From positions 1 to 14,054 of the forward strand of contig DUKK01000074.1 of assembly GCA_013329355.1 (NCBI GenBank): 14,054 bases of DNA, given 5' to 3'. The stretch comes from Candidatus Poseidoniaceae archaeon. Its GTDB lineage: Archaea > Thermoplasmatota > Poseidoniia > Poseidoniales > Poseidoniaceae. The position numbers and the translations under genes are program-made. Positions 1-13,772 of this stretch are shown here, one piece after another. Numbering within the stretch: the stretch's first letter is position 1; the number at the start of each line of letters is the position of its first letter. The notes beneath the pieces are model-generated. The model was not told the DNA's origin. It searched no databases and was given only the letters and a program-made list of their open reading frames with translations.

Positions 1-786
1 GAAAATTTTTCCAACGGAGAAAATATATTTTCAAAGGGTTCGGTTATGTCACCGGAAAAAATATCACTTTGTGCAGCTGCAGGCGTAGCTGAATTAGTTG
101 TCTACAAAAAACTGAGAATCGCAGTGATATCAACAGGCGACGAGCTACAAAATTTGGGCGAAGAGTTAACTTTTGGGCAGATTTACGAATCTAATTCATA
201 TGGTCTCAAATCATTAATTGAGATATACGGCCATGAGGCGACTAGGATCCCTTATGTTATTGACGATATTGAGGTTTTGCGCGATTCACTAAACCGGGCA
301 GCAGCAGAATTTGACTGTATCATAACCTCTGGTGGGGTTTCAATGGGCGAACGAGATTTTGTCCGAATTCTCATGGAACAGGAGGGCGACATAAAATTCT
401 GGAGAGTAAAAATGCGCCCAGGTTCGCCGCCAATATTTGGTTTTTGGAACGATACGCCAATATTTGGCTTACCAGGAAACCCGGTAAGCAGTCACGTAGT
501 TTTCCGTGCGATAGTTGGTAAATGGCTAACATCTTTGACAGACTCATTAGATTACAATAGCAAATACGTTAACGCAGTAATAGCTGAAGATATCAAAACT
601 CAGCCAGATTTTACTACATATAGAAGAGTAGAATTATTCGAGGAAGGGGGAGTTACCTACGCACGGTTACAAGGTCATCAGGGGTCCGGTAACATAGCAG
701 GAATTGCTTTGAGTGACGGCCTTACGGTACTACTTCCGGAACAAAATGGTCGTAAAGGCGAAGTATGTAGGATTCTTTTATTGTAG
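1..786 (+). CDS. moeA: Molybdopterin molybdenumtransferase MoeA, C-terminal ~260 aa (5'-truncated by window edge)
   Basis: Frame 1 is open from base 1 (ENFSNGENIFSKGSV precedes the listed ATG at 46), so the gene begins upstream of the window. MoeA domain III/IV motifs are present: RIAVISTGDEL, TSGGVSMGERDF, PIFGLPGNPVSS. Stop TAG 784-786. Confidence 0.8.
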   Translation, partial: ENFSNGENIFSKGSVMSPEKISLCAAAGVAELVVYKKLRIAVISTGDELQNLGEELTFGQIYESNSYGLKSLIEIYGHEATRIPYVIDDIEVLRDSLNRAAAEFDCIITSGGVSMGERDFVRILMEQEGDIKFWRVKMRPGSPPIFGFWNDTPIFGLPGNPVSSHVVFRAIVGKWLTSLTDSLDYNSKYVNAVIAEDIKTQPDFTTYRRVELFEEGGVTYARLQGHQGSGNIAGIALSDGLTVLLPEQNGRKGEVCRILLL

Positions 787-790
787 GTGA
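785..790 (+). promoter_or_regulatory. Shine-Dalgarno-like AGGTGA, 4 nt upstream of GTG start at 795
   Basis: AGGTGA overlaps the moeA stop codon. Spacer is TTAT, then GTG. This suggests translational coupling of the two genes. Confidence 0.45.
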
Positions 791-794
791 TTAT

Positions 795-1667
795 GTGAAG
801 ATAATCGCCGATGTAGAGATCGAACTGTTGCCTTTTCTTCGGCAGAATTTTCCCGCATCATCTAGCAATAAACTACGCAAAATGCTGACAACAGGACGCG
901 TCAACGTGAATAATATAACGATCCACAAAGCAAAGCATAGTTTACGAAAAAACGATGTGGTTGAGATAAGTAAAAAATCATCAAAACCAAAAAAGGCATC
1001 AAATGAACTATCAATCAATAATCTCAAAATCGATTTGATTTATGAGGATGAAGCAATTCTGATTGTTGAAAAACCGCCAAAGGTACTTTCAGTAGCGACG
1101 GATAAGTTAGAGTCAAATACATTACATTCAAAGTGTGTTGATTATCTCAAGCAAGCGGATTCTAAGGGCTGGGCATACATCGTTCATAGACTAGACAAGG
1201 AGACCTCAGGAATAATGTTGCTAGCGAAACAAAAGGAGGCCAAAAACTATCTTCAACAGCAATTTGCCGAACGCTTAGTTTATCGAATCTATCATGCCCT
1301 AGTCGAGGGAATACCGAGTAAGAAATCAGGGACCATCACTCAGTTTCTTGTTGAGGATAAACATCTTAATATCAAACCTACATCAAAATCAAACAACAAT
1401 GCAAAAGAAGCAATAACTCACTGGGAAGTGCTCTCCTCTAGTAGTGAATCATCAATCGTCAGAGTTATGATTGAAACCGGGCGCCGTCACCAAATCAGGA
1501 TGGCTATGAAATCGCTTGGCCACCCAATTGTGGGAGATACACTGCACGGCGCGCTGACCGATCCATTCTCAAGAATCTGTTTACATGCAACTTCGTTAGA
1601 ATTTTTACACCCACAAACCGATGAACCGGTGAGGTTTGAATCAACCCAGCCTTTCACTTCACTATGA
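795..1667 (+). CDS. RluA-family (RluD/RluC-like) 23S rRNA pseudouridine synthase with N-terminal S4 RNA-binding domain
   Basis: GTG start. S4-like N-terminus (LLPFLRQNFPASSSNKLRKMLTTGRVNVNN). Catalytic-Asp motif HRLDKETSGIMLLAK. ETGRRHQIRMAM matches the TGRTHQIR motif. C-terminal LHATSLEFLHPQT is also family-typical. 290 aa, a normal length for the family. Confidence 0.85.
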   Translation: MKIIADVEIELLPFLRQNFPASSSNKLRKMLTTGRVNVNNITIHKAKHSLRKNDVVEISKKSSKPKKASNELSINNLKIDLIYEDEAILIVEKPPKVLSVATDKLESNTLHSKCVDYLKQADSKGWAYIVHRLDKETSGIMLLAKQKEAKNYLQQQFAERLVYRIYHALVEGIPSKKSGTITQFLVEDKHLNIKPTSKSNNNAKEAITHWEVLSSSSESSIVRVMIETGRRHQIRMAMKSLGHPIVGDTLHGALTDPFSRICLHATSLEFLHPQTDEPVRFESTQPFTSL

Positions 1668-1724
1668 ACCCAACCACTAATTCAAATAGAGGACTTATTG
1701 AACTCTTGACATCCAATTGTGATT

Positions 1725-1732
1725 AGGTGGAG
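1725..1732 (+). promoter_or_regulatory. Shine-Dalgarno AGGTGGAG upstream of uvrA ATG 1736
   Basis: Strong anti-16S complementarity 3-6 nt before ATG 1736. The GTG at 1727 used by the ORF track lies inside this motif, which favours 1736 as the start. Confidence 0.5.
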
Positions 1733-1735
1733 ACC

Positions 1736-4666
1736 ATGGGTGACGATCAGGACTGGATTACGGTACGCGGAGCCCGTACTCATAACCTAAAGAATATCGA
1801 TGTAAAACTCCCACGTGGCAAATTCGTTGTAGTATCAGGGGTTTCTGGTTCAGGGAAATCCAGTCTTGCTTTTGATACCCTCTACGCAGAGGGTCAACGA
1901 CGCTATGTCGAAAGCTTGTCATCCTATGCTAGACAGTTTATCGGGCAGATGAAAAAAGCCGATTGTGATGGCATTGAGGGCTTATCTCCTGCAATCTCAA
2001 TAGATCAGAAGCAGGGCAGCCACAACCCGCGCTCCACGGTGGCAACAGTGACAGAAATCCAGGATTATCTTCGATTGCTCTGGGCAAGAATAGGCAAACC
2101 CCATTGTCCAACATGTGGAGTTGAGGTTGCTAGGCGGACAGTCCAGGAGATTGTAGACGATATACTATGGAATCTTGAGGAACATACAGTTGCAGTATGG
2201 TCGCCCGTGATTAGAGCTAGAAAGGGAACGCATCAAGACCTGTTTCGTCAGTTATTCGAGCAAGGCTTTCTCAACGGCAAGGTGAATGGGCATGATGCTG
2301 AATTTGAAAACCCTCCCCAATTGGATAAAAATTTCCGTCACGATATCGATGTAAGAATAGATCGGTTTGTGTGTCGTAGGAAAGCTAGACAGCGACTTAC
2401 AGAAGCAGTCGAATCTGCACTACGATTGGGCGGAGGAGCGCTTGCAATCGAATCATTAAAGGAGCCGTCAGAGAATTTACCACTACCAAGCGGTAGCAAA
2501 TCTAGAGAAAACAAAGTTGGAGAAATTATCTCATGGTCAGAGGACTTTGCCTGCCCTGAACACGGGGCATTTATGCCGGAACTTTCTCCCCGAGTATTCT
2601 CTTTTAACTCTCCACTTGGCGCCTGTAGCAGTTGTCAAGGACTTGGAGTACAACGACAATTCAACACAGAACTGGTCGTTGACTATGAATTATCGATAAA
2701 CAATGGCTGTGTTAGACCGTGGAAACGATCAATGTCCCCTTCATGGTATCGAAGGTTACTAGAACAGGTGGCAGACTACTACAATATCCCTATCCACGTT
2801 CCGTTCAAACTACTGTCGGATGACGAACAGGACATTTTGCTGTATGGTTCAGGCTCTACTGTAATTAATTTCCATTTCGAATCAGACAACGGTTCGGTTT
2901 ACAAAATGAACCGGCCCTGGGAGGGCATCATACCCCGCTTAGAGAAAACCTATACAGAGACCTCATCTGATAGAACCCGGAATCGATTGATTAATTGCAT
3001 GACTGATCTCCCATGTCCTGATTGTAATGGTGAAAAATTGAATGCAGCAGCAAGACACGTAACCGTCGGCGGCATCCGTTTGCCAGAGGTTTCTTCATGC
3101 TCGATACATGACAGCCTTGAGGTAGTTAGGTCATGGCGCCCGGAACACGAACGCGGACCGCCGGAAGAATTCGCTGATCAAGTTGAAATTCTCGATGAGA
3201 AGAGCTTATTCATCGGCAATGAAATACTAAAAGAAATCGAGAGCAGACTAGACTTTCTCAACAGTGTTGGCCTTGATTACCTAACATTAGATCGAAAAGC
3301 CAACACGTTATCAGGCGGCGAAAGTCAACGGATAAGACTGGCAACTCAGATAGGGAGCAGGTTGACCGGCGTGATGTATGTTCTAGATGAACCATCAATC
3401 GGGCTACATCAGCGTGATAACACCCGGCTGCTGACAACACTCAGAGAATTGAGCGATTTGGGTAATACGTTAATTGTTGTAGAGCATGATGAGGATACAA
3501 TTCGGCAAGCTGATTGGCTGTGCGACCTTGGACCGGGAGCGGGTCTAGAGGGTGGAGTAGTAGTTGCTAACGGACCGCCTGAAGAGGCAATGAATAATGA
3601 CGAGTCGGTAACCGGAGCTTATCTTAGCGGTAAGAAAACCATCGCTATACCAGAAAAGCGAAAGAGACCAACAAAAGATAAGATTAAAATTAAAGGCGCC
3701 CAACATAATAACCTACAATCAGTCAACGTAGACTTTCCATTGGGCTGCATGACTGCGGTTTGCGGGGTTTCTGGGTCTGGTAAATCATCACTAGTGTCTG
3801 GGATTCTAGCCCCTGCTCTACAACGTGCATTACACAATGCCGACACAACTCCAGGCAAATACAAGAGCATCGAAGGTATTGACAAAATTGATAAAACCAT
3901 CATTATAGATCAATCACCAATTGGAAGAACTCCTCGCTCCAACCCAGCAACCTATACCAAGGTCTTTGATGAAATAAGGAAATTATTTTCGCAGACGACG
4001 TTATCCAAAGAACGAGGTTACACTCCCGGGCACTTCAGTTTTAATGTAAAGGGCGGCAGATGTGAAGCATGTAGCGGCGCGGGCTCAATTAAACTGGAAA
4101 TGAACTTCTTACCAGATGTTTGGATTACTTGTGATGTTTGCAACGGGATGCGCTACACCCGGGAGTGTCTTGAGGTGACATGGAAGGGGAAGACCATCCA
4201 TGATGTTCTAGAAATGCCAATTGGCGAGGCGGTAAAATTCTTCGAAAATCACAAAAAGATCCACCGAACCCTTGACACTCTCAGAGCCGTAGGTCTTTCT
4301 TATGTGAGATTAGGCCAACCCGCTACTACTCTATCTGGTGGTGAAGCGCAACGGGTAAAGTTAGCTAGCGAACTACGCCGACCACCCAATAAACACACAG
4401 TTTACATCCTTGATGAGCCGACAACGGGATTAGCATTATCAGATGTTCAAATGTTAATCGACGTATTACTAGAATTACGTGGCAAAGGACATACCGTAAT
4501 AGTGATTGAACACCACTTAGATGTGATAAAATCCAGTGATTGGGTTATCGATTTAGGTCCGGAAGGTGGAGACCGCGGAGGCCAATTGATCGCTTACGGA
4601 CCGCCAGAGAAAATCGCTAAAAATGAGCATAGTTTTACCGGACAATATCTCAAAAATATGTTGTGA
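1736..4666 (+). CDS. uvrA: Excinuclease ABC subunit A (UvrA), 976 aa
   Basis: N-terminus [15 protein letters not shown]. Two Walker A motifs (GVSGSGKSS, twice). Two ABC signatures ([16 protein letters not shown]). Walker B motifs [11 protein letters not shown] and [10 protein letters not shown]. Zinc modules [22 protein letters not shown] and CEACSGAG...CDVCNG. Confidence 0.95.
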
Positions 4667-4731
4667 CATTCATCCGTATTGTTCAAAGAGCGTATGCGCC
4701 GCCACCAATATGACCCCGGCGGGCTTATACT

Positions 4732-7700
4732 ATGCAAATAACAAGAGTCGAGACTACTCCTAGGTCTGGTGATGGTCTTAGAGATGTCAGAGGAGATGTT
4801 GTCAGACGACATCTTTCAGCCGATTACGGCATACAATTGACCGCAGTTAGGAGCATAGTTGGGTTCTTAATCAGCTCAGACATCGCGCCAGAGCGAATAA
4901 GCCAAAGGGCTGACGATTTATTTGCTGACCCAATTATTGAATATTCTCTAACCAATCAAACTTTTTTGCAATCAAAAGATATCTTCACTGAGTTGCCAGA
5001 TGCAGTAGTTTCCGTAGGCTTCAAACCAGGAGTCACCGATAACCCAGGGAAGGCTGCATTAGACGGATTCAGAACTATATTTCCCGATGCCCACCAAGAA
5101 TCAGATATATCTACCTACATAACCTACTCTTTCTATGGTTTGGACGGCCAAACAACGCCAGAATTCATCGCTGCGAATCTCTATAACAATCTGATTGAAA
5201 GGGCTGAAATTTCTACAGCAGAAATGTGTCAAAACGGCGAGTGGCCGATGATCGATTATCCAATAAGACCGCCACAGGAATTTAAACAACCAGCTCATAT
5301 CGATCTAGAAATTGCAGACAATGAATTAATCGAGATTTCCGAAACGGGATTACTAGCTTTAAATTTAACAGAAATGCAGGCAATTCAAACCCACTATCGT
5401 AACGATTCAGTTCGTAACGCACGCCGTGCAATAGGTATTGTTGAGGATCGGCCAACTGATGTAGAATTGGAGTGTTTAGCTCAGACCTGGAGTGAGCACT
5501 GCAAACACAAAATCTTCGCGTCAAAAATACACCATAAGGACCTAGAAACCGGTGAAGAGTCAACAGTAGATTCAATCTTCAAGACTCACATTATGAATCC
5601 AACGCATGATATGCAGAAAGAAGTTGACTGGTTGTTATCGGTATTCCATGACAATTCAGGAGTAATCGCTTGGGATGATGAATGGAGTGTCTGCATGAAA
5701 GCCGAGACTCATAATTCCCCATCAGCACTTGATCCATACGGCGGCGCCATGACGGGAATAGTCGGCGTTAATCGTGACATTCTTGGCACCGGTTTAGGTG
5801 CAAGGCCGATAGCTAACACGGACGTGTTTTGCTTTGGCCCGCCAGATTGGCAAGGCGATATTCCGGATAACTTATTTCACCCATCTAGAGTGCTTAGAGG
5901 AGTCCATTCTGGGGTTCGCGTTGGCGGCAACGAATCAGGCATACCAACAATTAACGGTGCTATTGTGTTCGATGAAAGATATCTTGGCAAGCCTTTGGTG
6001 TATTGTGGTACGGTGGGGCTGATGCCTAGGAAATTGCCCGATGGTCGAGAATCACACGTCAAGACTCCTACTGCTGGTGATATAGTATACATGGTTGGCG
6101 GCAGAGTAGGCTACGACGGGATACATGGAGCGACCTTTTCATCATTAGAGTTGACCGAGGAATCGCCATCGAGCGCCGTGCAGATAGGTGACCCGATCAC
6201 TCAAAAGAAAATGGTTGACATGCTATTGGAAGCACGTGATGCCGGATTAATCACTTGTATCACCGACAATGGTGCAGGAGGGCTGTCATCATCTATTGGT
6301 GAGATGGCCGAGTATACCAACGGTTGTCGAATTGACTTGGCCAAGGTGCCACTTAAACAACCAGGTTTATCGCCATGGGAAATACTGGTTTCTGAGAGTC
6401 AAGAAAGAATGACAGTTGCCATCAAGTCGGAAGATATTGCGGAATTTGAGCATCTTGCGGCATTGCATGAAGTAGAGGCCACAGCAGTTGCTGAATTCAC
6501 TTCTACGGGCATGTTTCATGTCCAGTTTAATGATGCAACAGTTGCTTACCTACCGATTGAGTTTTTGCACGATGGAGTGCCGCAGTTAGAACTTGAATCC
6601 GAATGGAGCCCACCACAACATGAACCATTTATTGCTCCTGCAGAATACGATCACAATCAGATATTACTTGATTTGTTAGCGAGGCCTAATATCGCTAGTA
6701 AAGAGACCTGGGTTCGACAATACGACCACGAAGTAATAGCTCAGACCGCAGTTAAGCCGTTTGTTGGCGTTGAACGCGACGGACCAGCAGATGCCGGAGT
6801 AATAGCTCCGATCTATGGTAACCCACGCGGCTTGGTTGTCTCATGCGGTATAGCGCCACGCTACTCGGATATCGATGCTGGAGCGATGGCAGCTGCAGCA
6901 ATCGACGAAGCGGTAAGAAATGCAGTTTGTGTAGGAGTCAACGTCGATAAGATTGCCGGCTTGGATAATTTCTGCTGGCCAGACCCAATCCAATCAGAAA
7001 AAACCCCTGACGGTAAGTTCAAACTCGCTCAATTAGTCAGAGCGAATCGAGAACTAGAGCGAGTATGCCGGGCATATCGTCTGCCTTGTGTTAGTGGTAA
7101 GGATTCTATGAAGAATGATTATGGTAAAGGTCCGAATAAGATATCGATACCACCAACTCTGTTGTTCTCTCTATTCGGCGATCATCCAGATGTCAGGAAT
7201 ACCGCAACTAGCGACTTCAAGCATTCAGGCGACAAGGTGTATCTCGTTGGCGAATCGTTTGACGAATTAGGGGCGTCGGAGGTTTCTTTCATGCTGCGTG
7301 AAAGCAGCAAAGCCAGAGGAATTGGCGGAAAAGTCCCCTCTTTATCGAATCCAGAGAAACTTTTCAATTCATATCGTTTACTTAGTTCTTCAATTAATAG
7401 CGGATTAGTAAAAACCGCCCATGACTGCTCAGAGGGAGGGATTGGAATCACCCTTGCTGAGATGTGTATCGGCGGTAGAATTGGTGCAACAATTGACCTC
7501 GACGGCACCGGAGACTGCCCGCTTTGGTCAAAGCTGTGGGGAGAATCTCTCGGCAGAATAGTAGTTGCAGTATCACCACAAAACGAGGCTGCATTTTTGC
7601 AGAGCATGTCAGGTTGTATAACGACTTATCTAGGCGTTGTGGAGGATTCAGATACGCTCACTATTTCAGATGGTTTTGAGCCATTAGTCTCCATTAGGAT

Positions 7701-7758
7701 ACCTGAATTAGTGCAATCATGGCAAGGAACTTTGGATATGAATGGGGGCGAATTATGA
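4732..7758 (+). CDS. purL: Phosphoribosylformylglycinamidine (FGAM) synthase, PurS-PurS-PurL fusion (PurSL), 1008 aa
   Basis: The PurL core starts near aa 190 (linker LALNLTEMQAIQTHY; WSEHCKHKIF; KAETHNSPSALDPYGGAMTG; GARPIA; ITDNGAGGLSSS; ESQERM; VSGKDSM). The preceding ~190 aa form two PurS-like repeats (RDVRGDVVRRHL...DLFADPIIEY and GFKPGVTDNPGKAALDGF...NLYNNLIERAEI). Stop TGA 7756-7758. Confidence 0.9.
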   Translation: MQITRVETTPRSGDGLRDVRGDVVRRHLSADYGIQLTAVRSIVGFLISSDIAPERISQRADDLFADPIIEYSLTNQTFLQSKDIFTELPDAVVSVGFKPGVTDNPGKAALDGFRTIFPDAHQESDISTYITYSFYGLDGQTTPEFIAANLYNNLIERAEISTAEMCQNGEWPMIDYPIRPPQEFKQPAHIDLEIADNELIEISETGLLALNLTEMQAIQTHYRNDSVRNARRAIGIVEDRPTDVELECLAQTWSEHCKHKIFASKIHHKDLETGEESTVDSIFKTHIMNPTHDMQKEVDWLLSVFHDNSGVIAWDDEWSVCMKAETHNSPSALDPYGGAMTGIVGVNRDILGTGLGARPIANTDVFCFGPPDWQGDIPDNLFHPSRVLRGVHSGVRVGGNESGIPTINGAIVFDERYLGKPLVYCGTVGLMPRKLPDGRESHVKTPTAGDIVYMVGGRVGYDGIHGATFSSLELTEESPSSAVQIGDPITQKKMVDMLLEARDAGLITCITDNGAGGLSSSIGEMAEYTNGCRIDLAKVPLKQPGLSPWEILVSESQERMTVAIKSEDIAEFEHLAALHEVEATAVAEFTSTGMFHVQFNDATVAYLPIEFLHDGVPQLELESEWSPPQHEPFIAPAEYDHNQILLDLLARPNIASKETWVRQYDHEVIAQTAVKPFVGVERDGPADAGVIAPIYGNPRGLVVSCGIAPRYSDIDAGAMAAAAIDEAVRNAVCVGVNVDKIAGLDNFCWPDPIQSEKTPDGKFKLAQLVRANRELERVCRAYRLPCVSGKDSMKNDYGKGPNKISIPPTLLFSLFGDHPDVRNTATSDFKHSGDKVYLVGESFDELGASEVSFMLRESSKARGIGGKVPSLSNPEKLFNSYRLLSSSINSGLVKTAHDCSEGGIGITLAEMCIGGRIGATIDLDGTGDCPLWSKLWGESLGRIVVAVSPQNEAAFLQSMSGCITTYLGVVEDSDTLTISDGFEPLVSIRIPELVQSWQGTLDMNGGEL

Positions 7759-8591
7759 TGTATATCCCTAAAGTTGCGGTATTATTTGGCTTTGGAATTA
7801 ACTGCGATCATGAGACAGCAGCGGTGTTTGATATGGTAGGTGGCAACTCTACTAGAGTACATCTTAATTCATTTATCTCGGGCTCGGATAGTTTAGACAA
7901 TTATGACATACTTGCGGTTCCGGGAGGATTTTCCTTCGGTGATCATTTGGGTAGTGGGCGACTCATGGGCAATCGAATGCGGTTTTCTCTCCGCGACGAG
8001 TTGACTAAGTTCATTGCTGCCGGTAAACCGATAATAGGAATCTGTAACGGTTTCCAAGTATTGGTTAAAACGGGATTACTACCTGGCCCGGGAGGCAATG
8101 TGCCAGACTTTGTTCAACGAGCGAGTTTAACATTAAATGATTCAGGAAGATATGAAGATCGCTGGGTTTCCTTAGAATTCAATCAATACAGCAACTGCAT
8201 TTGGACTAAAGGAATGAGCCGAATCGATTGTCCGGTGCGACACGGTGAAGGGAAATACGTTATGCCAGACCGTGAGAATCTGACAAAACTAGCTGCTAAT
8301 AATCAGATTGCAGTTCGCTACATTGATCCCGACAGCACAGATGCTGATCCAGATGTCGTATTACCATTCCCCAAATCACCCAACGGTAGTATGATGAATA
8401 TCGCTGGTATCTCAGATAACACTGGCTTAGTATTCGGCTTAATGCCGCATCCTGAGGCAATTTACGCACAATGGCTCCATCCTGATTACACCAGAGGAAC
8501 TGCACCAGTTACAGCTTCAGACATTGAATGGGAAGGACAGGGGCTGCAAATTTTTCGCAACGCAGTCGAATATGTAATTGCGAATAATTGA
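7755..8591 (+). CDS. purQ: FGAM synthase glutamine amidotransferase subunit PurQ (long form, 278 aa)
   Basis: ATG 7755-7757 overlaps the purL stop TGA 7756-7758 (ATGA coupling), and a GGGGG run lies 6 nt upstream. The ORF-track start at 7719 would overlap purL by 40 nt. Triad motifs: GICNGFQVL (Cys), HGEGK, LMPHPE. C-terminal LQIFRNA resembles the end of the large-PurL glutaminase domain. Confidence 0.9.
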   Translation: MMYIPKVAVLFGFGINCDHETAAVFDMVGGNSTRVHLNSFISGSDSLDNYDILAVPGGFSFGDHLGSGRLMGNRMRFSLRDELTKFIAAGKPIIGICNGFQVLVKTGLLPGPGGNVPDFVQRASLTLNDSGRYEDRWVSLEFNQYSNCIWTKGMSRIDCPVRHGEGKYVMPDRENLTKLAANNQIAVRYIDPDSTDADPDVVLPFPKSPNGSMMNIAGISDNTGLVFGLMPHPEAIYAQWLHPDYTRGTAPVTASDIEWEGQGLQIFRNAVEYVIANN

Positions 8592-8596
8592 TTGAA

Positions 8597-9631
8597 ATGT
8601 CGGAAACGGTAAGATTTCGTGAGGTAGATTCAATTCGAGGGCTGGCTGTACTGTTAATGGTAATGGTTCATGCTGCTGCCACATGGAATCCCCATAACAC
8701 AACTCAGGATACTATGTTAGCATACCTAGTAGCTGGATTAGGCGGTCTAGCAGCCCCGCTATTCGTAACTATATTTGGCTGGGGCCTGATAAAATCGAAA
8801 TCAAGTATCAGGAGCAATTTTATCAAAGCGCTCATTCTGTTATTATTGCAATTAGTGGTTAATCTATTCTCTCCACATTTATTCCATCTATTGACTCCAG
8901 GAATACTATCACTATTCGCGTTGTTAATAATAATGAAACCGTTAATTGTTCAAATCACTAAGAATAACATCAGGACCGCATTATTTATCCTGAGTATGGC
9001 TCTAGTTTATGCCTTTTCGAATTCAATTTATTATATACAAGGTAGTAGTGATTGGAGCATTAGAGTTTCTGTTGGCGACCCATATACTCTAATTAGTCAC
9101 CTATTTTTTACTGGAACTTATCCACTATTCCCGTGGATAACGTTCGCAGTGGTTGGTGCATTCCTTGGAAGTTCCATTACGGAGGGGGGGAAAACACTTC
9201 CAAGGAATAACACCACCTTGTTACTGATAATTATAGGAATGTCCTATTGTCTTGTCTCGCTGATATTAGCCATTAAAGCGAGAGTTGTTTGGGCGCATCC
9301 TACTGAAGGATCCTACCTAAACTTCTTTCCTGCTAATATTGGCTTCATGATCGGCGCAGTGACAGGGGTGTTCATCTTCTGGTTAATTATTCAGGAGTCG
9401 CAGATGTTGTTGTTCGAATCTTGTGGTAGATTGTCCTTGACTATCTATGTCCTGCATTTTTTGCCGTTGACTTTACTTTCCAATATCGAAGATGAAGGAT
9501 ATTGGTCAGTGATGGAAGCGAGCCTGGCAGTAGTGCTATACACTACTGCCTGGCTCTTCTTCGCATTTGTCTGGAACAGGTTTCAATGGCTAACCATTGA
9601 ACGCCTGGTTCGCAGACTTTCTAGTGGGTAA
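8597..9631 (+). CDS. Polytopic membrane protein, DUF1624/HGSNAT-like (acyltransferase-3 superfamily) family, about 344 aa
   Basis: N-terminal RFREVDSIRGLAVLLMVMVH matches the R-x3-D-x2-RG...H signature of DUF1624/heparan-alpha-glucosaminide N-acetyltransferase-like proteins. About 9-10 hydrophobic helices. C-terminal NRFQWLTIERLVRR resembles the GPLEWLWR tail of YeiB/DUF418 relatives. First ATG is at 8597. An in-frame TTG at 8588 overlaps the purQ stop and is the alternative start. Confidence 0.55.
   Translation: MSETVRFREVDSIRGLAVLLMVMVHAAATWNPHNTTQDTMLAYLVAGLGGLAAPLFVTIFGWGLIKSKSSIRSNFIKALILLLLQLVVNLFSPHLFHLLTPGILSLFALLIIMKPLIVQITKNNIRTALFILSMALVYAFSNSIYYIQGSSDWSIRVSVGDPYTLISHLFFTGTYPLFPWITFAVVGAFLGSSITEGGKTLPRNNTTLLLIIIGMSYCLVSLILAIKARVVWAHPTEGSYLNFFPANIGFMIGAVTGVFIFWLIIQESQMLLFESCGRLSLTIYVLHFLPLTLLSNIEDEGYWSVMEASLAVVLYTTAWLFFAFVWNRFQWLTIERLVRRLSSG
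9521..9555. repeat. Inverted repeat / RNA hairpin: 15-bp stem (14/15 paired, 10 contiguous), 5-nt loop
   Basis: AGCCTGGCAGTAGTG-CTATA-CACTACTGCCTGGCT. It lies inside the 3' end of the membrane-protein CDS, 77 nt downstream of the opsin stop when read on the minus strand. Confidence 0.7.
9582..9601. repeat. Inverted repeat / RNA hairpin: 8-bp perfect stem, 4-nt loop
   Basis: TTCAATGG-CTAA-CCATTGAA, 31 nt downstream of the opsin stop on the minus strand. On its own this is statistically unremarkable. Confidence 0.4.
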
Positions 9632-10438
9632 TCACTCTTCAGATCCGGCTGCTTTGGTATCCATTGTAGCTGCATACCAAACCATCATACCGAAGGCAGT
9701 CTTGTTGACTACGTCAGCGATGTTGTAGAGGATGTTTAGCATCTCTATGTCGCCAGCGTCGCCGCCTTCGCCCATGATGAAACCGATTGGGTAGATTGCC
9801 CAACCAACGGTTAGGATGATTGCCATAGCCTTGAAAGCGAATTGTGTTCCTTCGCTTGCACCGCTAACATTCTCCTTTGCTTCACCAGCCCAAATCTCGT
9901 AGATGATGTAAATCCATGCAGCTACACCGATAGCGAACAATGGCCAGGTTAGGCCGTCGTCCATTTCTCCAGATTCTGCTAGGAAACCAGCAATTAGCAT
10001 GACTAGGGATGCTCCGAAGAGTCTCCAGAACAGTGCAGCAGTAGCAGCACCGATAGCAGCCAGAATTAGGTAGAATTCAGCAACTTGTAGTGGCACAGTA
10101 ATCAACCAGTCAATATATCGCATGACTAGCGGGGAAGTTTCGAAAGCTTCCCAGTGCTTCCTCATGTAGGTGTAGTGATACCATGCAACACCAGTAACTA
10201 GTGCAGCAACGGTCATTGATGTTCGCCACTTAGGCGCTACATTTTGGCGCTCCATCATGAAGAAAACGGTAGATGCTAGCATCATTGCAGTTGCAAGCCA
10301 GAAAGATACAGCGACCATATCGGTCTCATCCATGTATCCGTCTCCAGCTACGTTTGCACTAACGTTTCCTAATGCCAACAGGCCAAGGGTTCCGATCAAA
10401 AGCAGGCTCGATGTTCTCTTCAAATTTGATTTAAACAT
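9632..10438 (-). CDS. Proteorhodopsin-family microbial rhodopsin, predicted outward H+ pump, blue-tuned (268 aa from ATG 10438)
   Basis: Seven hydrophobic helices. Helix C RYIDWLITVPLQVAEF gives D110/T114/E121, equivalent to PR D97/T101/E108. H88 in VAWYHYTYM corresponds to PR H75. Helix F has GWAIYPIGF. Helix G NIADVVNKTAFG carries D242 and the Schiff-base K246 (codon 9701-9703). Q118 (codon 10085-10087) corresponds to PR position 105. N-terminus MFKSNLKRTSSLLLIGTLGLLALGNVSA looks like a signal peptide. The ORF-track start at 10540 adds 34 non-homologous aa and overlaps the upstream ABC gene. Confidence 0.9.
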   Translation of the reverse strand: MFKSNLKRTSSLLLIGTLGLLALGNVSANVAGDGYMDETDMVAVSFWLATAMMLASTVFFMMERQNVAPKWRTSMTVAALVTGVAWYHYTYMRKHWEAFETSPLVMRYIDWLITVPLQVAEFYLILAAIGAATAALFWRLFGASLVMLIAGFLAESGEMDDGLTWPLFAIGVAAWIYIIYEIWAGEAKENVSGASEGTQFAFKAMAIILTVGWAIYPIGFIMGEGGDAGDIEMLNILYNIADVVNKTAFGMMVWYAATMDTKAAGSEE

Positions 10439-10467
10439 TATTCTCAAGTCGCGGTTCTCTCGTTTAG

Positions 10468-10476
10468 TATATAAAA
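10468..10476 (-). promoter_or_regulatory. Archaeal-type TATA box (TTTTATATA on minus strand) for the opsin gene
   Basis: 29 nt separate the box from ATG 10438, which places a TSS expected ~23 nt downstream of the box only a few nt before the ATG. No Shine-Dalgarno motif lies in between. A second AT-rich element (AATATAAA, 10488-10495) lies 20 nt further upstream. Confidence 0.5.
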
Positions 10477-10512
10477 GAGTGTTAAGATTTATATTACATC
10501 CATGCGTTTTCG

Positions 10513-12288
10513 CTACTTTTGGCCCGTCTGCACCTTCCATAATCTGCTGTATATTCCACCATTGTTTACTAACTCATCATGATTGCCTTTTTCTACAATC
10601 GAACCGGCATCCATAACAAGAATCTCATCACAGTTTCTTATTGTTGATAATCTGTGGGCAATGATTACAGTAGTTCGGTCTCTTGATACATATTCAATCG
10701 ACCTTTGTAAAGAGGCCTCAGTCTCATTATCTACTGCCGAGGTTGCTTCGTCTAATATTAGCAATGGGGCGTCCTTCAGAACCGCTCGAGCTATTGCTAG
10801 GCGTTGTCTTTGACCGCCAGATAGGCGATATCCTCCTTCCCCAACCATGGTTTGCCATTGGTCAGGTAGTCCGATGACGAATTCAGCAATTTCAGCAATT
10901 TTTGCCGCCTCATATACCTCTTCATCCGTAGCATTTGGATTCCCGTAGCGTATATTTTCTAATATTGTAGTTGGAAATAGGGTTATGTGTTGCTCAACTA
11001 AGGCAATAGAGGTCCGCAGGTGTTTTAATGACCAATTATCGATTTTTTCTCCACACCAGTATATGTCACCTATGTTTGGCTGAGCAAATCGCAGTATTAG
11101 TCTGGTGAGTGTGGTTTTCCCCGCACCCGTGGAGCCTACGATACCAGTGGTTTTACCTGCTGCTATTGTCAATGATAAGTCGCTGAATGTTTCCTCTCTA
11201 CCGCGATAAGCGAAGGATACCGAGTCAAAAGTAATATCACTATTTTCAACCATATTTCGTTCAGGCACATAATCGCCCTCCTTGATTTCGATCTCGGATG
11301 TTAATACATCTAGGACGCGAGTTGATGATGCCATCGCTCGCTGGTATAAATCAAAAGTTTCACCTAATCTAGTCAGAGGCCAAAGTAATCTTTGAGTCAT
11401 AAAGACCAATACAGAATATGCACCTACGGCTAACGAGCCTTCAAGGGTATACCAGCCACCAAGCAGTAATGTTGCTGTAAAACCACACAGTATTGCCATT
11501 CTTATCAGTGGGGTAAACGCAGCCGACAAACGAATTGCTTTACGATTTGCTTCACGATAGCCGTCACTAAGCATCCTCACTCTGTCTACTTCTATTTCTT
11601 CAGAAGTGAATGACTGAATGGTAGACATGCCAGATAGGTCATTTTCTAGCAGAGCATTCATCTTACCAGCAGCATTACGCACTTCGGCATATTTTGGCTC
11701 AAGACTACGTTGATACTTGAACGAGCCCCACACAATTATCGGGATTGGGATTATCGCTAACATAGCAACTTGCCATGAGATGAACAGAAACACTGCGCCA
11801 ACCACAATAACTGTAGTGGATACCTGTAAAAGGTCATTTGCGCCCTTGTCGAGGAATCGTTCCAATTGGTTGATATCGTCATTTAAGATTGCTAGAATAT
11901 CTCCTTTTTGACGCTCATCAAACCACCCCATGCCTTGTTTTTGCACGTGATTAAAGGTGTCTAGACGTAACTCATGCTGCACGGTTTGAGCAAGGTTTCG
12001 CCACAAAACGCCGTAAAAGTACTCAAAAAGTGATTCTAAACCCCAAATGGCAAATGTAAGTATTGACAATAAAACCAGTTGATTCCACGGGTCGGCTATT
12101 CCTAAGCTTGCAAGAAACGAAGCGTCTCTTAACACCACCACATCAACCGCTAAACCGATTAGTAATGGTGGCGCAAGGTCCCAAACTTTGTTTGTTACAG
12201 AACATAATGAGGCTAGACGAATCGTCTTCCTATGGCCCTTCATGTGAGACAGAAGCCTTCTGAAAGGACCAACTTCGCTCATACACAT
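10513..12288 (-). CDS. Half-size ABC exporter, fused TMD-NBD (ABCB/MsbA-like type I exporter), 591 aa
   Basis: N-terminal six-helix TMD. Walker A GSTGAGKTT, signature LSGGQRQRLAIARA, Walker B LLILDEATSAVD, H-loop IIAHRLSTI. Starts at ATG 12288 (or the M3 ATG at 12282). Stop TAG 10513-10515. Confidence 0.9.
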   Translation of the reverse strand: MCMSEVGPFRRLLSHMKGHRKTIRLASLCSVTNKVWDLAPPLLIGLAVDVVVLRDASFLASLGIADPWNQLVLLSILTFAIWGLESLFEYFYGVLWRNLAQTVQHELRLDTFNHVQKQGMGWFDERQKGDILAILNDDINQLERFLDKGANDLLQVSTTVIVVGAVFLFISWQVAMLAIIPIPIIVWGSFKYQRSLEPKYAEVRNAAGKMNALLENDLSGMSTIQSFTSEEIEVDRVRMLSDGYREANRKAIRLSAAFTPLIRMAILCGFTATLLLGGWYTLEGSLAVGAYSVLVFMTQRLLWPLTRLGETFDLYQRAMASSTRVLDVLTSEIEIKEGDYVPERNMVENSDITFDSVSFAYRGREETFSDLSLTIAAGKTTGIVGSTGAGKTTLTRLILRFAQPNIGDIYWCGEKIDNWSLKHLRTSIALVEQHITLFPTTILENIRYGNPNATDEEVYEAAKIAEIAEFVIGLPDQWQTMVGEGGYRLSGGQRQRLAIARAVLKDAPLLILDEATSAVDNETEASLQRSIEYVSRDRTTVIIAHRLSTIRNCDEILVMDAGSIVEKGNHDELVNNGGIYSRLWKVQTGQK

Positions 12289-12333
12289 TCCACGCGGCTC
12301 TCATTGATAACTGTGTGATTAGCACCCTAAGCA

Positions 12334-12341
12334 GATATATC
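12334..12341. promoter_or_regulatory. Palindromic TATA-like element GATATATC in the divergent ABC/GGGPS intergenic region
   Basis: Exactly 45 nt separate it from ATG 12288 (minus) and from ATG 12387 (plus). It is the only alternating-TA, TATA-like motif in the 98-nt spacer. Confidence 0.3.
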
Positions 12342-12386
12342 TCCGCAACAAATATGCGTTGTAGGTTAAACCAACTGACGATTGGC

Positions 12387-13199
12387 ATGCGTCGTGATGA
12401 AGGTAGTGTTCTTTCTTACATCACAGATACGAAGGGGCGCGTCAGGCACATCACTCTAATAGATCCGGACAAACAATCACCGCAAACCGCATCAGATCGG
12501 GCATGTGTGGCGGTAGAAGCGGGTACCTCAATGATTTTTGTTGGAGGCTCTACTGATACACCTGATGAAATTGTCCATGCAACCTGTGTCGCAATACAAG
12601 AAGGGCTAGAATTGCGTGCTTTTGCTGCTAGCCAATCACCAGATGGTGACGAATTAAGATGGCAAATACCCGTAGTTCTATTCCCCGGAGGGTCCCATGC
12701 CCTATCTCCTGCAGCAGATGCTATAACATTCATGATGCTGATGAACTCTACCGACCGGCGCTTCTTAGTTGGCGAACAACTCAGGGGCGCCCCATATCTC
12801 GATAAGTTCGGCGTCGACGCGCTACCAACGGGATACTTGGTTTGTCATCCAGGAGGTAAAGTGGGCGAGGTTGGCAGTGCAGATTTACTGATGCCTAATG
12901 ATGTTGAGTTGGTAAAGGCATACTCATTAACCGCAGTAATGTTTGGTTTCAAACTACTTTATCTCGAAGCAGGCAGCGGTGCAGACAATCAGGTTAGTCC
13001 TGATTTGATTAAATCAGCCCGAACGACAGACGGCTTGACAATCATAGTCGGTGGTGGCATTAGAACTGCAGCCCAAGCGAAACTAGCTGTCGAGTCTGGT
13101 GCTGATTGGGTTGTTACCGGGACGCTGACAGAGGATGCAACGAATTTGAATGATTTGAAGAATAAGATTGCAGAAATATGCTCAGCATTAAGTGAATAA
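12387..13199 (+). CDS. Geranylgeranylglyceryl phosphate synthase (GGGPS, PcrB/GGGPS TIM-barrel family), about 270 aa
   Basis: Family motifs: HITLIDPDK, MIFVGGSTD, VVLFPGG, ADAITFMMLMNS, YLVCHPGGKVGEVG, LLYLEAGSGA, IIVGGGIRT, GADWVVTGT. From memory it resembles Thermoplasma-type GGGPS. The ORF is open from GTG 12315. ATG 12387 gives the family-typical ~20 aa before HITLIDP and lies downstream of the putative TATA. ATG 12354 is an alternative start. Confidence 0.8.
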   Translation: MRRDEGSVLSYITDTKGRVRHITLIDPDKQSPQTASDRACVAVEAGTSMIFVGGSTDTPDEIVHATCVAIQEGLELRAFAASQSPDGDELRWQIPVVLFPGGSHALSPAADAITFMMLMNSTDRRFLVGEQLRGAPYLDKFGVDALPTGYLVCHPGGKVGEVGSADLLMPNDVELVKAYSLTAVMFGFKLLYLEAGSGADNQVSPDLIKSARTTDGLTIIVGGGIRTAAQAKLAVESGADWVVTGTLTEDATNLNDLKNKIAEICSALSE

Positions 13200-13229: not shown

Positions 13230-13772
13230 ATGACGAGACTAGTTGCTGGCGCTAATGCGCCAGATATTATCCTACCAGCAGTAGACGGAAGCACATTCAA
13301 AATGGCAGATTATTTGGGCAAAAGAGTAATCTTGACATTTTTTAGATTCTCATCATGCCCCTTTTGCAACATTAGAATTAATCGGTTAGTAAAACGCTGG
13401 AATGAGTTTTCCACTGATACGGTCATGGTAGGGGTATTCGACGCAAAAATCGGCGAGCTTACCAAGCGGATGAAAAAGCACAATGCGCCATTCACAATTG
13501 TCGCTGATGAATCATATGAACACTTTGAGCGCAACTCGGTAGCCAAATCACTAGGCAGATTCCTTATCGGAGCCTTAAGATCGCCGTTAACCTTCATGCA
13601 GGCGACTCTCAAGGGCTATTTTCCTTTGACTCTGTCAATAGGTAAACTATCAATAATTCCGGTCGACATTCTGATTGACGAACAGGGCAAAGTAGTTAGA
13701 GCACATTACTGTAAAGATACGGTTGATCACATACCAATCGATGAGTTGATTGCGTTTTCTAAGGGTCAGTAA
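13230..13772 (+). CDS. Thioredoxin-fold AhpC/TSA-family protein, PRX_like2-type with CxxC (180 aa)
   Basis: APDIILPAVDGSTFKMADYLGKRVILTFFRFSSCPFCN is the typical AhpC/TSA N-terminal beta-strand plus active-site context, with CPFC in place of the peroxidatic-Cys motif. IPVDILIDEQGKVVRAHY is the typical C-terminal strand pair. Confidence 0.7.
   Translation: MTRLVAGANAPDIILPAVDGSTFKMADYLGKRVILTFFRFSSCPFCNIRINRLVKRWNEFSTDTVMVGVFDAKIGELTKRMKKHNAPFTIVADESYEHFERNSVAKSLGRFLIGALRSPLTFMQATLKGYFPLTLSIGKLSIIPVDILIDEQGKVVRAHYCKDTVDHIPIDELIAFSKGQ

Follow-up and report, generated by a model that had tools for sequence, protein, structure and literature searches.

The stretch of DNA analysed here, i.e., the whole of positions 1 to 14,054 of contig DUKK01000074.1 (14,054 nucleotides (nt), referred to as the window), carries at 9632..10438 on the minus strand a gene for a proteorhodopsin (PR) of 268 amino acids (aa) with the DTE motif, the tuning residue Gln118 and the Schiff-base lysine Lys246. 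The gene is enclosed by a convergent membrane acyltransferase gene on the side of its stop codon and by a co-directional ABC exporter gene on the side of its start codon, and it is accompanied by an archaeal-type promoter element and by two predicted hairpins past its stop codon. The protein is very probably a blue-absorbing, outward proton-pumping PR of Archaea clade A (deep photic, DP), encoded in the chromosome of an uncultured member of Candidatus (Ca.) Poseidoniaceae (Marine Group IIa, MGIIa). Bacterial-type proteorhodopsins of Marine Group II (MGII) have reportedly been known since 2006, the year in which Frigaard et al. are said to have first reported those of Archaea clade A.

The main finding is already known in its essentials: publications of 2018-2019 describe the clades, their colour tuning and the conserved locus, and GenBank contains the exact protein. 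An earlier interpretation of the window made without database searches (hereafter the sequence-only reading) had left two points open, namely the clade and the host, and both are now settled (Archaea clade A, blue-tuned; Poseidoniaceae). We add evidence at the level of breakpoints indicating that homologous replacement at a fixed site has exchanged PR alleles between species, and we describe the anatomy of the exchanged cassette, i.e., the promoter, the open reading frame (ORF), the 3' hairpins and the recombination scars, which is the sole part of this work that may be new.

Protein family, fold and key residues

The PR ORF runs on the minus strand from an ATG at 10438-10436 to a stop codon at 9634-9632. 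Its product matches the Pfam family PF01036 (Bac_rhodopsin) with 161.8 bits (E 2.3e-47) over residues 42-258, corresponding to positions 3-222 of the 224 positions of the profile, and this match and a seven-helix structure model bear out the 268-aa opsin with seven transmembrane helices (7TM) that the sequence-only reading had placed here. The residues singled out in that reading (H88, D110, T114, E121, GWAIYP, D242 and K246) all stand where it had put them. The segment RYIDWLITVPLQVAEF starts at residue 107 and supplies R107, D110, T114 and E121; H88 lies within WYHY; GWAIYP occupies residues 212-217; and NIADVVNKTAFG contains D242, N245 and K246. In the alignment with green proteorhodopsin (GPR, PDB 8cqc) the corresponding residues are H75, R94, D97, T101, E108, D227, N230 and K231, i.e., K246 and D242 align with K231 and D227 of GPR, and the aspartate counterion stands four residues before the Schiff-base lysine. 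The equivalent of PR position 105 is Gln118, and the equivalent of the PR proton donor is Glu121.

A scan of one genome per GTDB species yielded 57 loci encoding PR relatives (these and further related contigs are denoted by L numbers where they need to be told apart). The window PR is 56-100% identical to the proteins of these 57 loci, all of which have the same motif, versus 50-55% identical to bacterial proteorhodopsins. At every covered column the 57 loci agree without exception in H, R, D, T, Q, E, D, N and K, and the functional residues, including R107, D110, T114 and E121, are invariant in alignment A2. Nonsynonymous divergence (dN) across the PR family is 0.00-0.21.

The best sequence matches among solved structures are GPR (8cqc, E 5e-72), the blue proteorhodopsin (BPR) of Med12 (4jq6, 1.2e-71) and that of HOT75 (4kly, 1.8e-67). 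The top proteorhodopsin matches as a group (GPR, Med12, HOT75) span E values of 5e-72 to 3e-66, and rhodopsins of the xanthorhodopsin, sensory, chloride-pump and halobacterial types follow far behind (1e-19 to 1e-9). Together with the Pfam match, scores of this size make a chance resemblance implausible. GPR shares 50% and Med12 BPR 55% of its residues with the window PR. An AlphaFold model computed from a 25-sequence alignment (pLDDT 73, pTM 0.70) consists of an N-terminal helix followed by seven long transmembrane helices; Foldseek ranks solved proteorhodopsins at the top for this model (target-normalised TM-scores 0.84-0.90), and its TM-score to the HOT75 BPR is 0.89. The profile, the PDB matches, the residue columns and the Foldseek search thus agree in assigning the protein to the DTE proteorhodopsins and not to the halobacterial or sensory types, as proposed from the sequence-only reading.

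Two other classes of rhodopsin were considered and rejected. A halobacterial bacteriorhodopsin (BR) would have Asp as the donor, i.e., the DTD motif, where the window PR has Glu, and would be without the His that pairs with the acceptor Asp in PR (H75 of GPR, here H88), and the matches to BR reach only E ~1e-9 to 1e-10 at 22-24% identity. Xanthorhodopsin (XR), Gloeobacter rhodopsin and Kin4B8 are pumps that bind an antenna and share with the window PR the 7TM fold and the DTE motif, but the identity to them is 27-30% (27-28% to XR and Kin4B8), and the glycine of their fenestration is replaced by Phe168, so that neither an XR-like antenna rhodopsin nor a fenestrated PR with a carotenoid antenna fits the sequence (PMC12137139). 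Phe168 was equated with F152 of GPR from the HMMER alignment and by counting residues, and F152 of GPR was in turn equated with W138 of BR and G156 of XR by our own alignment of helix E, which agrees with the published description of the proteorhodopsins of Poseidoniia as unfenestrated and binding no antenna (PMC12137139).

Clade and colour

Three published schemes define the clades of archaeal proteorhodopsins. Tully (2019) assigns Gln-105 and blue tuning to Archaea clade A and Met-105 to clade B (PMC6336850); Rinke et al. (2019) distinguish DP, with Gln and a Glu donor, from SP, with Met and a Lys donor (PMC6461757); and in the scheme of Pereira et al. (2019) clade A corresponds to pop2-4 (PMC6741140). 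We place the window PR in clade A because it has both the DTE motif and a glutamine as tuning residue: by its motif residues (Q118, E121) it falls within clade A or DP and outside clade B or SP. Other names in use for the clade A PR of Ca. Poseidoniia are 'DP' (Rinke et al. 2019), pop2-4 (Iverson et al. 2012) and, in MicRhoDE, unk-env8 and unk-euryarch-HF70_59C08. MGIIa genomes are reported to be without the HF70_59C08 subgroup (PMC6336850), from which membership of the window PR in the unk-env8 subgroup appears likely. The caveat in the sequence-only reading that the gene might belong to a known class was well placed, given that the published clade A or DP (PMC6336850, PMC6461757) accommodates it and that the exact protein has been deposited.

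The window PR has all the attributes of clade A, namely the DTE motif, Gln at position 105, the Glu donor, the equivalent of His75, a single copy, a Poseidoniaceae host and a conserved neighbourhood, and we find nothing substantive that separates it; the window allele is common to several species-level lineages at 93-100% aa identity. Clade B of MGII (shallow photic, SP, e.g., ACB-G35) shares with it the host order, the logic of a single-copy locus and outward proton pumping (PMC6461757, PMC12137139) but is a separate family, where Met at position 105 and the Lys donor take the places of Q118 and E121. Among bacterial proteins, the BPRs (HOT75, 4KLY and 4KNF; Med12, 4JQ6) resemble the window PR in fold (target-normalised TM-scores 0.88-0.90) and in the key residues including Q105, at 50-55% identity, and presumably work by the same mechanism; the window PR differs from them in its archaeal host, its archaeal TATA promoter and its separate lineage. 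GPR (EBAC31A08; 8CQC, 7B03, 2L6X) shares the proton-path residues and an N-terminal signal peptide. It has Leu at position 105 where the window PR has Gln, for which blue rather than green absorption is predicted, and the D-E loop of the window PR contains a 3-residue insertion relative to GPR.

Proposed mechanism and alternatives to it

By analogy with GPR and BPR, we propose the following mechanism. After export and probable loss of the 28-residue signal peptide, all-trans retinal would bind to Lys246 as a protonated Schiff base. Photoisomerisation would then move the proton to Asp110, a member of the PR-specific His88-Asp110 pair, with the participation of Arg107 and Asp242, and the cytoplasmic donor Glu121 would reprotonate the Schiff base. 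Gln118 is predicted to move the absorption maximum to ~490 nm, and Phe168 would shut the glycine-window site of xanthorhodopsin, so that a carotenoid antenna is not expected.

Several points weigh against this assignment of a blue-absorbing proton pump. Pumping by the window protein is attributed by homology; the confidence of the structure model is only moderate (pLDDT 73); and none of the 60 best PDB matches is named an archaeal proteorhodopsin, i.e., no clade A archaeal structure was found among them. No blh or crt gene was found in the window or in the ~6 kb past its high-coordinate end that are covered by L058, and the majority of MGII genomes, including two of the eight MGIIa subclades, have no annotated blh (Tully 2019, PMC6336850). 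Finally, the ATP synthase of MGII may be coupled to Na+ (PMC6336850), which bears on how a proton gradient would be used.

The absence of carotenoid and retinal genes from the same interval agrees with the description of the opsin as stand-alone in the sequence-only reading, and it is also a point in favour of a rival explanation, namely that the opsin is made without retinal synthesis of its own and either relies on scavenged retinal or has a mainly non-energetic role such as membrane stabilisation. A structural role of inactive proteorhodopsin has indeed been discussed for some bacteria (PMC9723583). We nevertheless regard this explanation as unlikely: blh is annotated in the other six of the eight MGIIa subclades (PMC6336850), and the strict conservation of the residues of the retinal pocket and the proton path, with the low dN given above, argues for a working pigment. 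Moreover, the question it raises is the source of the chromophore, and it is compatible with a proton pump of the kind proposed here.

A photosensory function of a PR-related rhodopsin, in place of energy conservation, is very improbable. Transport is not provable from a sequence, and PR-related sensors do exist (PMC10519204), but the window PR has the carboxylate donor E121 within a full and invariant DTE motif, where sensor proteorhodopsins have Phe or Ser at the donor position (Rinke et al., PMC6461757). Its nearest solved relatives are all pumps, and no transducer-like gene was found in the window or in the ~6 kb beyond it in L058. Transport of another ion (Na+ or Cl-) or inward proton pumping is exceedingly improbable, since helix C has the DTE motif, where Na+ pumps have NDQ, Cl- pumps NTQ and inward pumps a motif of their own, and chloride pumps are matched at E ~1e-11 compared to 5e-72 for proteorhodopsins, even if the Na+-binding motifs of MGII ATP synthases (PMC6336850) would make a Na+ pump physiologically sensible.

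Host

Over its full length the window shows 99.5% identity to PBJJ01000015.1 (142 kb), a contig of the archaeal metagenome-assembled genome (MAG) GCA_002721085.1, and the exact 268-aa protein is deposited as DAC59093.1, HII37365.1 and MBK71629.1 under the title 'bacteriorhodopsin [Candidatus Poseidoniaceae archaeon]'. The closest species representative, Ca. Poseidoniaceae UBA8725, has 100% protein identity and 91-93% DNA identity over an 11.5-kb contig. Among the 57 related loci, 54 carry archaeal titles, mostly Ca. Poseidoniales or MGII or MAGs named 'Euryarchaeota/Methanobacteriota archaeon'; single-cell genomes and two MAGs of Marine Group III are among them. Genes for L18e, L13, S9 and RpoN lie within 10 kb of the PR gene in L059, and those for ribosomal L18A(e), prefoldin and SRP54 lie equally close in L060 and L066-L069. 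Two genes from the opsin, as the sequence-only reading had it, the window encodes geranylgeranylglyceryl phosphate synthase (GGGPS), a marker of archaeal ether lipids (12315..13199, plus strand), which passes the NCBIfam equivalog TIGR01769 with 172.9 bits (cutoff 161.55) and matches PcrB with E 1.6e-40. The true start of this gene is probably downstream of the called one, the orthologue being annotated with 281 aa. The host is thus a planktonic archaeon of Thermoplasmatota, as previously proposed, and its full placement is Archaea; Thermoplasmatota; Ca. Poseidoniia; Poseidoniales; Poseidoniaceae. Judging from its flanks, which are nearest to those of MAGs labelled MGIIa-L1, the host probably belongs to the genus L1.

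The alternative is that the contig is bacterial, e.g., from the FCB group, with an archaeal label that arose as a binning artefact and a GGGPS of the bacterial PcrB/GGGPS type. Homologues of GGGPS are known in some bacteria, and three of the 57 loci (L020, L031 and L036) are found in MAGs labelled Flammeovirgaceae, Dehalococcoidia and Pseudobdellovibrionaceae. We consider this alternative extremely unlikely. The remaining loci are labelled archaeal, and one of the single-cell genomes (L021) has the full syntenic block; contigs of 100-480 kb join the same or a related PR to archaeal-type genes; and the GGGPS exceeds the cutoff of the GGGP equivalog. Flanking genes that match FCB-group bacteria, which had been named beforehand as the sign of a bacterial host, were not encountered. 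The three contigs with bacterial labels carry archaeal PR and are probably binning errors in public MAGs; for the 'Flammeovirgaceae' locus L020 mis-binning is the simpler explanation because it contains the same ABC-PR pair as Poseidoniaceae, at 71-73% identity.

As to the more distant past, the origin of the gene in bacteria by inter-domain transfer rests on the literature; the present data contribute the 50-55% identity to bacterial proteorhodopsins.

Start codon, predicted signal peptide and promoter

The longest ORF at the locus is not the 268-aa form but one of 302 aa (10540..9632, minus strand), which is obtained by a spurious in-frame extension of 34 codons upstream of the ATG (10439..10540) that overlaps the 3' end of the ABC gene. 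We consider the 302-aa form an artefact because the extension is interrupted by in-frame stop codons in orthologues (L008, L057, L035, L003, L004, L010 and others) and because MFKSNLK(R/K) is conserved as the N-terminus of PR across orthologues; in addition, the extension is itself unconserved and would bury the signal peptide. Public gene catalogues often call an opsin of 299-303 aa that starts inside the ABC transporter gene. The NCBI annotation gives the 268-aa form.

Residues 1-28 (MFKSNLKR...LGNVSA, encoded at 10355..10438, minus strand) are predicted to be an N-terminal signal peptide: a basic n-region leads into a hydrophobic core and a VSA motif, and the stretch aligns with the signal region of GPR. 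In the AlphaFold model this region is a separate helix of low confidence (residues 8-29). A28 is invariant in alignment A2, and by analogy with GPR cleavage would occur after this residue.

The sequence-only reading had also noted a TATA box. The TATA-like TTTTATATA is located at 10476-10468, its last base 29 nt before the PR ATG, and together with an upstream stretch resembling the B recognition element (BRE) it makes up the element aacactc-TTTTATATA (10468..10483, minus strand). At least 20 orthologous loci keep the motif at this distance, whereas the intergenic sequence around it differs between them, a pattern in favour of an archaeal TATA promoter whose transcript has a very short leader, if any. 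A strictly leaderless start is consistent with the distance from the TATA box to the ATG. The Red Sea mdRNA-Seq paper holds no information on transcription starts of MGII PR, and scans of the window for Rfam families and tRNA genes gave no matches.

No other gene of the window has as low an effective number of codons as PR (ENC 50.2, neighbours 52-59) or as high a GC content at third codon positions (GC3, 0.48). This codon bias is consistent with high expression, and proteorhodopsin is listed among the most transcribed genes of Poseidoniales (PMC9723583).

Hairpins downstream of the gene

Two hairpins are predicted on the minus strand past the PR stop codon, both within the final 40 codons of the acyltransferase gene that converges on PR. 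Hairpin 1 (9570..9616) begins 16 nt and ends 62 nt past the stop codon, antisense to the last codons of the acyltransferase. Hairpin 2 (9512..9566) is the strongest local fold of the window on either strand, with -33.7 kcal/mol on the PR-sense strand compared to a window-wide mean of -9.1 kcal/mol (standard deviation 3.9) for 56-nt folds. The structure was assessed over 11 related loci, where 98.1% of the cells (one base pair in one locus) are paired. Hairpin 1 has 17 base pairs, of which 4 show compensatory changes, and ~97-100% of its cells are paired; hairpin 2 has 22 pairs, and again 4 show compensatory changes. Compensatory double changes are thus found in 8 of 39 pairs, a level reached by none of 500 shuffles, and the proportion of paired cells drops to merely 32-46% when the registers of the hairpins are slid by 1-3 columns. 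In 28 cells the pair is G-U, which on the other strand would be an A-C mismatch.

The hairpins could in principle be a feature of the acyltransferase gene in which they are embedded. This explanation was rejected on account of L010, which keeps both hairpins in non-coding DNA beside its PR, and the 3' end of its own acyltransferase gene is without a strong fold (-13 to -14 kcal/mol).

Beyond the close relatives, a hairpin of at most -24 kcal/mol within 170 nt past the PR stop codon is present in 52 of 55 Poseidoniales loci compared to 12 of 406 control segments, and at a threshold of -28 kcal/mol the counts are 44 of 55 and 0 of 406, respectively, with the provision that the 55 loci are phylogenetically non-independent, so that fewer independent events lie behind these counts than the figures suggest. 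In 48 of the 55 loci the PR-sense strand gives the more stable fold (Wilcoxon p = 6e-9), and the hairpins fall into several unrelated sequence families. A T-rich run follows the hairpin in 13 of the 55 loci only, and a classical terminator consisting of a hairpin and a U-tract is therefore not the general solution. The near-universal PR-sense hairpin may act in the PR RNA, either in termination or in protecting the 3' end of a very abundant mRNA. A limited literature search returned no published report of a hairpin past PR. In one lineage (L008 and L060-L065, PR 93% identical in aa sequence), which is among the few without a strong hairpin after PR (-13.8 kcal/mol), the acyltransferase gene has been lost, and a spacer of ~190 nt with a gene trace of ~84 nt takes its place.

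Exchange of alleles at a fixed site

Rinke et al. found one PR copy per genome, conserved neighbourhoods and a PR tree in conflict with the genome tree, and proposed an 'overwrite' model: the resident PR is displaced at its site by an incoming one, 'possibly via homologous recombination' (PMC6461757). Our comparison of the window with a second species of Poseidoniaceae points to such a replacement. A tract comprising PR and the 3' third of the acyltransferase gene (~9100..10400) is 94-100% identical between the two, and the flanks are 73-82% identical. Specifically, the PR DNA in L066-L071 (six independent contigs of 31-295 kb) is 95.4-95.7% identical to that of the window, compared to 73-82% for every flanking gene. 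The left edge of the tract is sharp and lies inside the acyltransferase gene, so that the tract reaches 500 nt into the neighbouring gene. The same contrast is seen at synonymous sites in L001 and L005 compared with the window, where the synonymous difference (pS) is 0.19-0.24 in PR versus 0.74-0.85 in the flanks. These patterns indicate a recent replacement of the PR allele between species at the same site.

Two other explanations of the tract were examined. Assembly chimeras, which might be suspected in the short UBA contigs L001 and L005, were rejected on the grounds that the pattern recurs in the six independent contigs, two of which have names ending in '_pilon', i.e., are polished assemblies. 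Codon bias alone is only partly tenable as the cause of the low synonymous divergence of PR, given its slightly lower ENC, but does not account for the size of the gap in pS and the extension of 500 nt into the next gene. Across the relatives, the synonymous divergence of PR plateaus below that of its neighbours (~0.65 vs 0.85), again in keeping with high expression.

Further evidence comes from L010, a 117-kb contig of a MAG named 'LRMED', where the PR gene is inverted within otherwise collinear flanks (at L010:9977-10945). In the neighbour-joining tree of PR this locus groups with L003, L004 and L006 (100% bootstrap), but in the ABC tree it stands outside a seven-member clade that contains these three (100% bootstrap). 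The 3' side of its PR is occupied by 135 nt of degenerate sequence left over from the 3' end of an acyltransferase gene of the window type. This remnant still encodes QWLTIE, is interrupted by stop codons and includes both hairpins, and the acyltransferase gene of L010 itself is intact and has a different C-terminus. To judge from its sequence, the remnant is direct scar evidence for the transfer of the cassette between lineages of Poseidoniaceae.

Taken with its own TATA promoter, its double hairpin and its fixed site between the acyltransferase and ABC genes, the PR gene is a self-contained unit. We put forward, as a tentative proposal whose chances we rate at slightly under even, that PR in Poseidoniales is a compact cassette (TATA promoter, ORF and strand-specific 3' hairpins) that moves in overwrite events, with the hairpins serving as terminator or 3' stabiliser and marking the boundaries of the cassette. 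The last element of the proposal is suggested because the 135-nt scar travelled with the inverted PR of L010. The exchange data refine the published overwrite model and do not overturn it.

Genomic neighbourhood

The membrane acyltransferase gene (HGSNAT_cat / Acyl_transf_3) occupies 8588..9631 on the plus strand, its stop codon abutting that of PR. Directly upstream of PR, an MsbA-like ABC exporter with fused transmembrane and ATPase domains is encoded at 10513..12288 on the minus strand, and the GGGPS gene is followed on the plus strand by a gene for a thiol peroxidase or redoxin of the AhpC/TSA family (13230..13772). On the other side of the acyltransferase a conserved housekeeping block extends on the plus strand from moeA to purQ (1..8591); it consists of 1) moeA, 5'-truncated by the edge of the window (ORF 46-786), 2) a pseudouridine synthase gene of the RluA family (795-1667), 3) uvrA (1727-4666), 4) purL (4732-7758) and 5) purQ (7719-8591).

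The housekeeping block is syntenic in L008, L010, L023, L025, L035 and L058-L071, and the full order, namely moeA, RluA-family gene, uvrA, purL, purQ, acyltransferase, PR (minus), ABC (minus), GGGPS and peroxiredoxin, is kept in many Poseidoniaceae loci. At the PR site the gene order is maintained down to 40-80% identity of the flanking proteins, including the single-cell genome L021. The most persistent link is the adjacency of the co-directional ABC and PR genes with a spacer of ~75 nt, which survives in loci where the other side of PR differs (L007, L009, L011, L012, L016, L018 and L059). Distant relatives (56-69% protein identity, including the two Marine Group III loci) have none of these neighbours within 10 kb in the same arrangement. 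The sequence-only reading had seen retinal phototrophy as wired into a core-metabolism context rather than into an island. One part of this view holds, in that the site is fixed among housekeeping genes; the other does not, in that PR behaves as a swappable cassette, and nothing in our analysis indicates a functional coupling of PR to the purine synthesis, repair or lipid genes.

A few observations concern the neighbours themselves. The PurL protein has 1008 aa, with ~230 N-terminal residues before the standard PurL match, where a PurS-like match is weak (E 0.014, below the threshold); this arrangement points to PurS being fused to PurL, with PurQ encoded separately. As listed, the ORFs of purL and purQ share 40 nt. 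In related archaeal contigs, genes for a protein of the MreB/actin family and a large S8 peptidase are found nearby (L058:2544-3560, L060:4245-5309), outside the interval corresponding to the window and ~4 kb past the peroxiredoxin gene.

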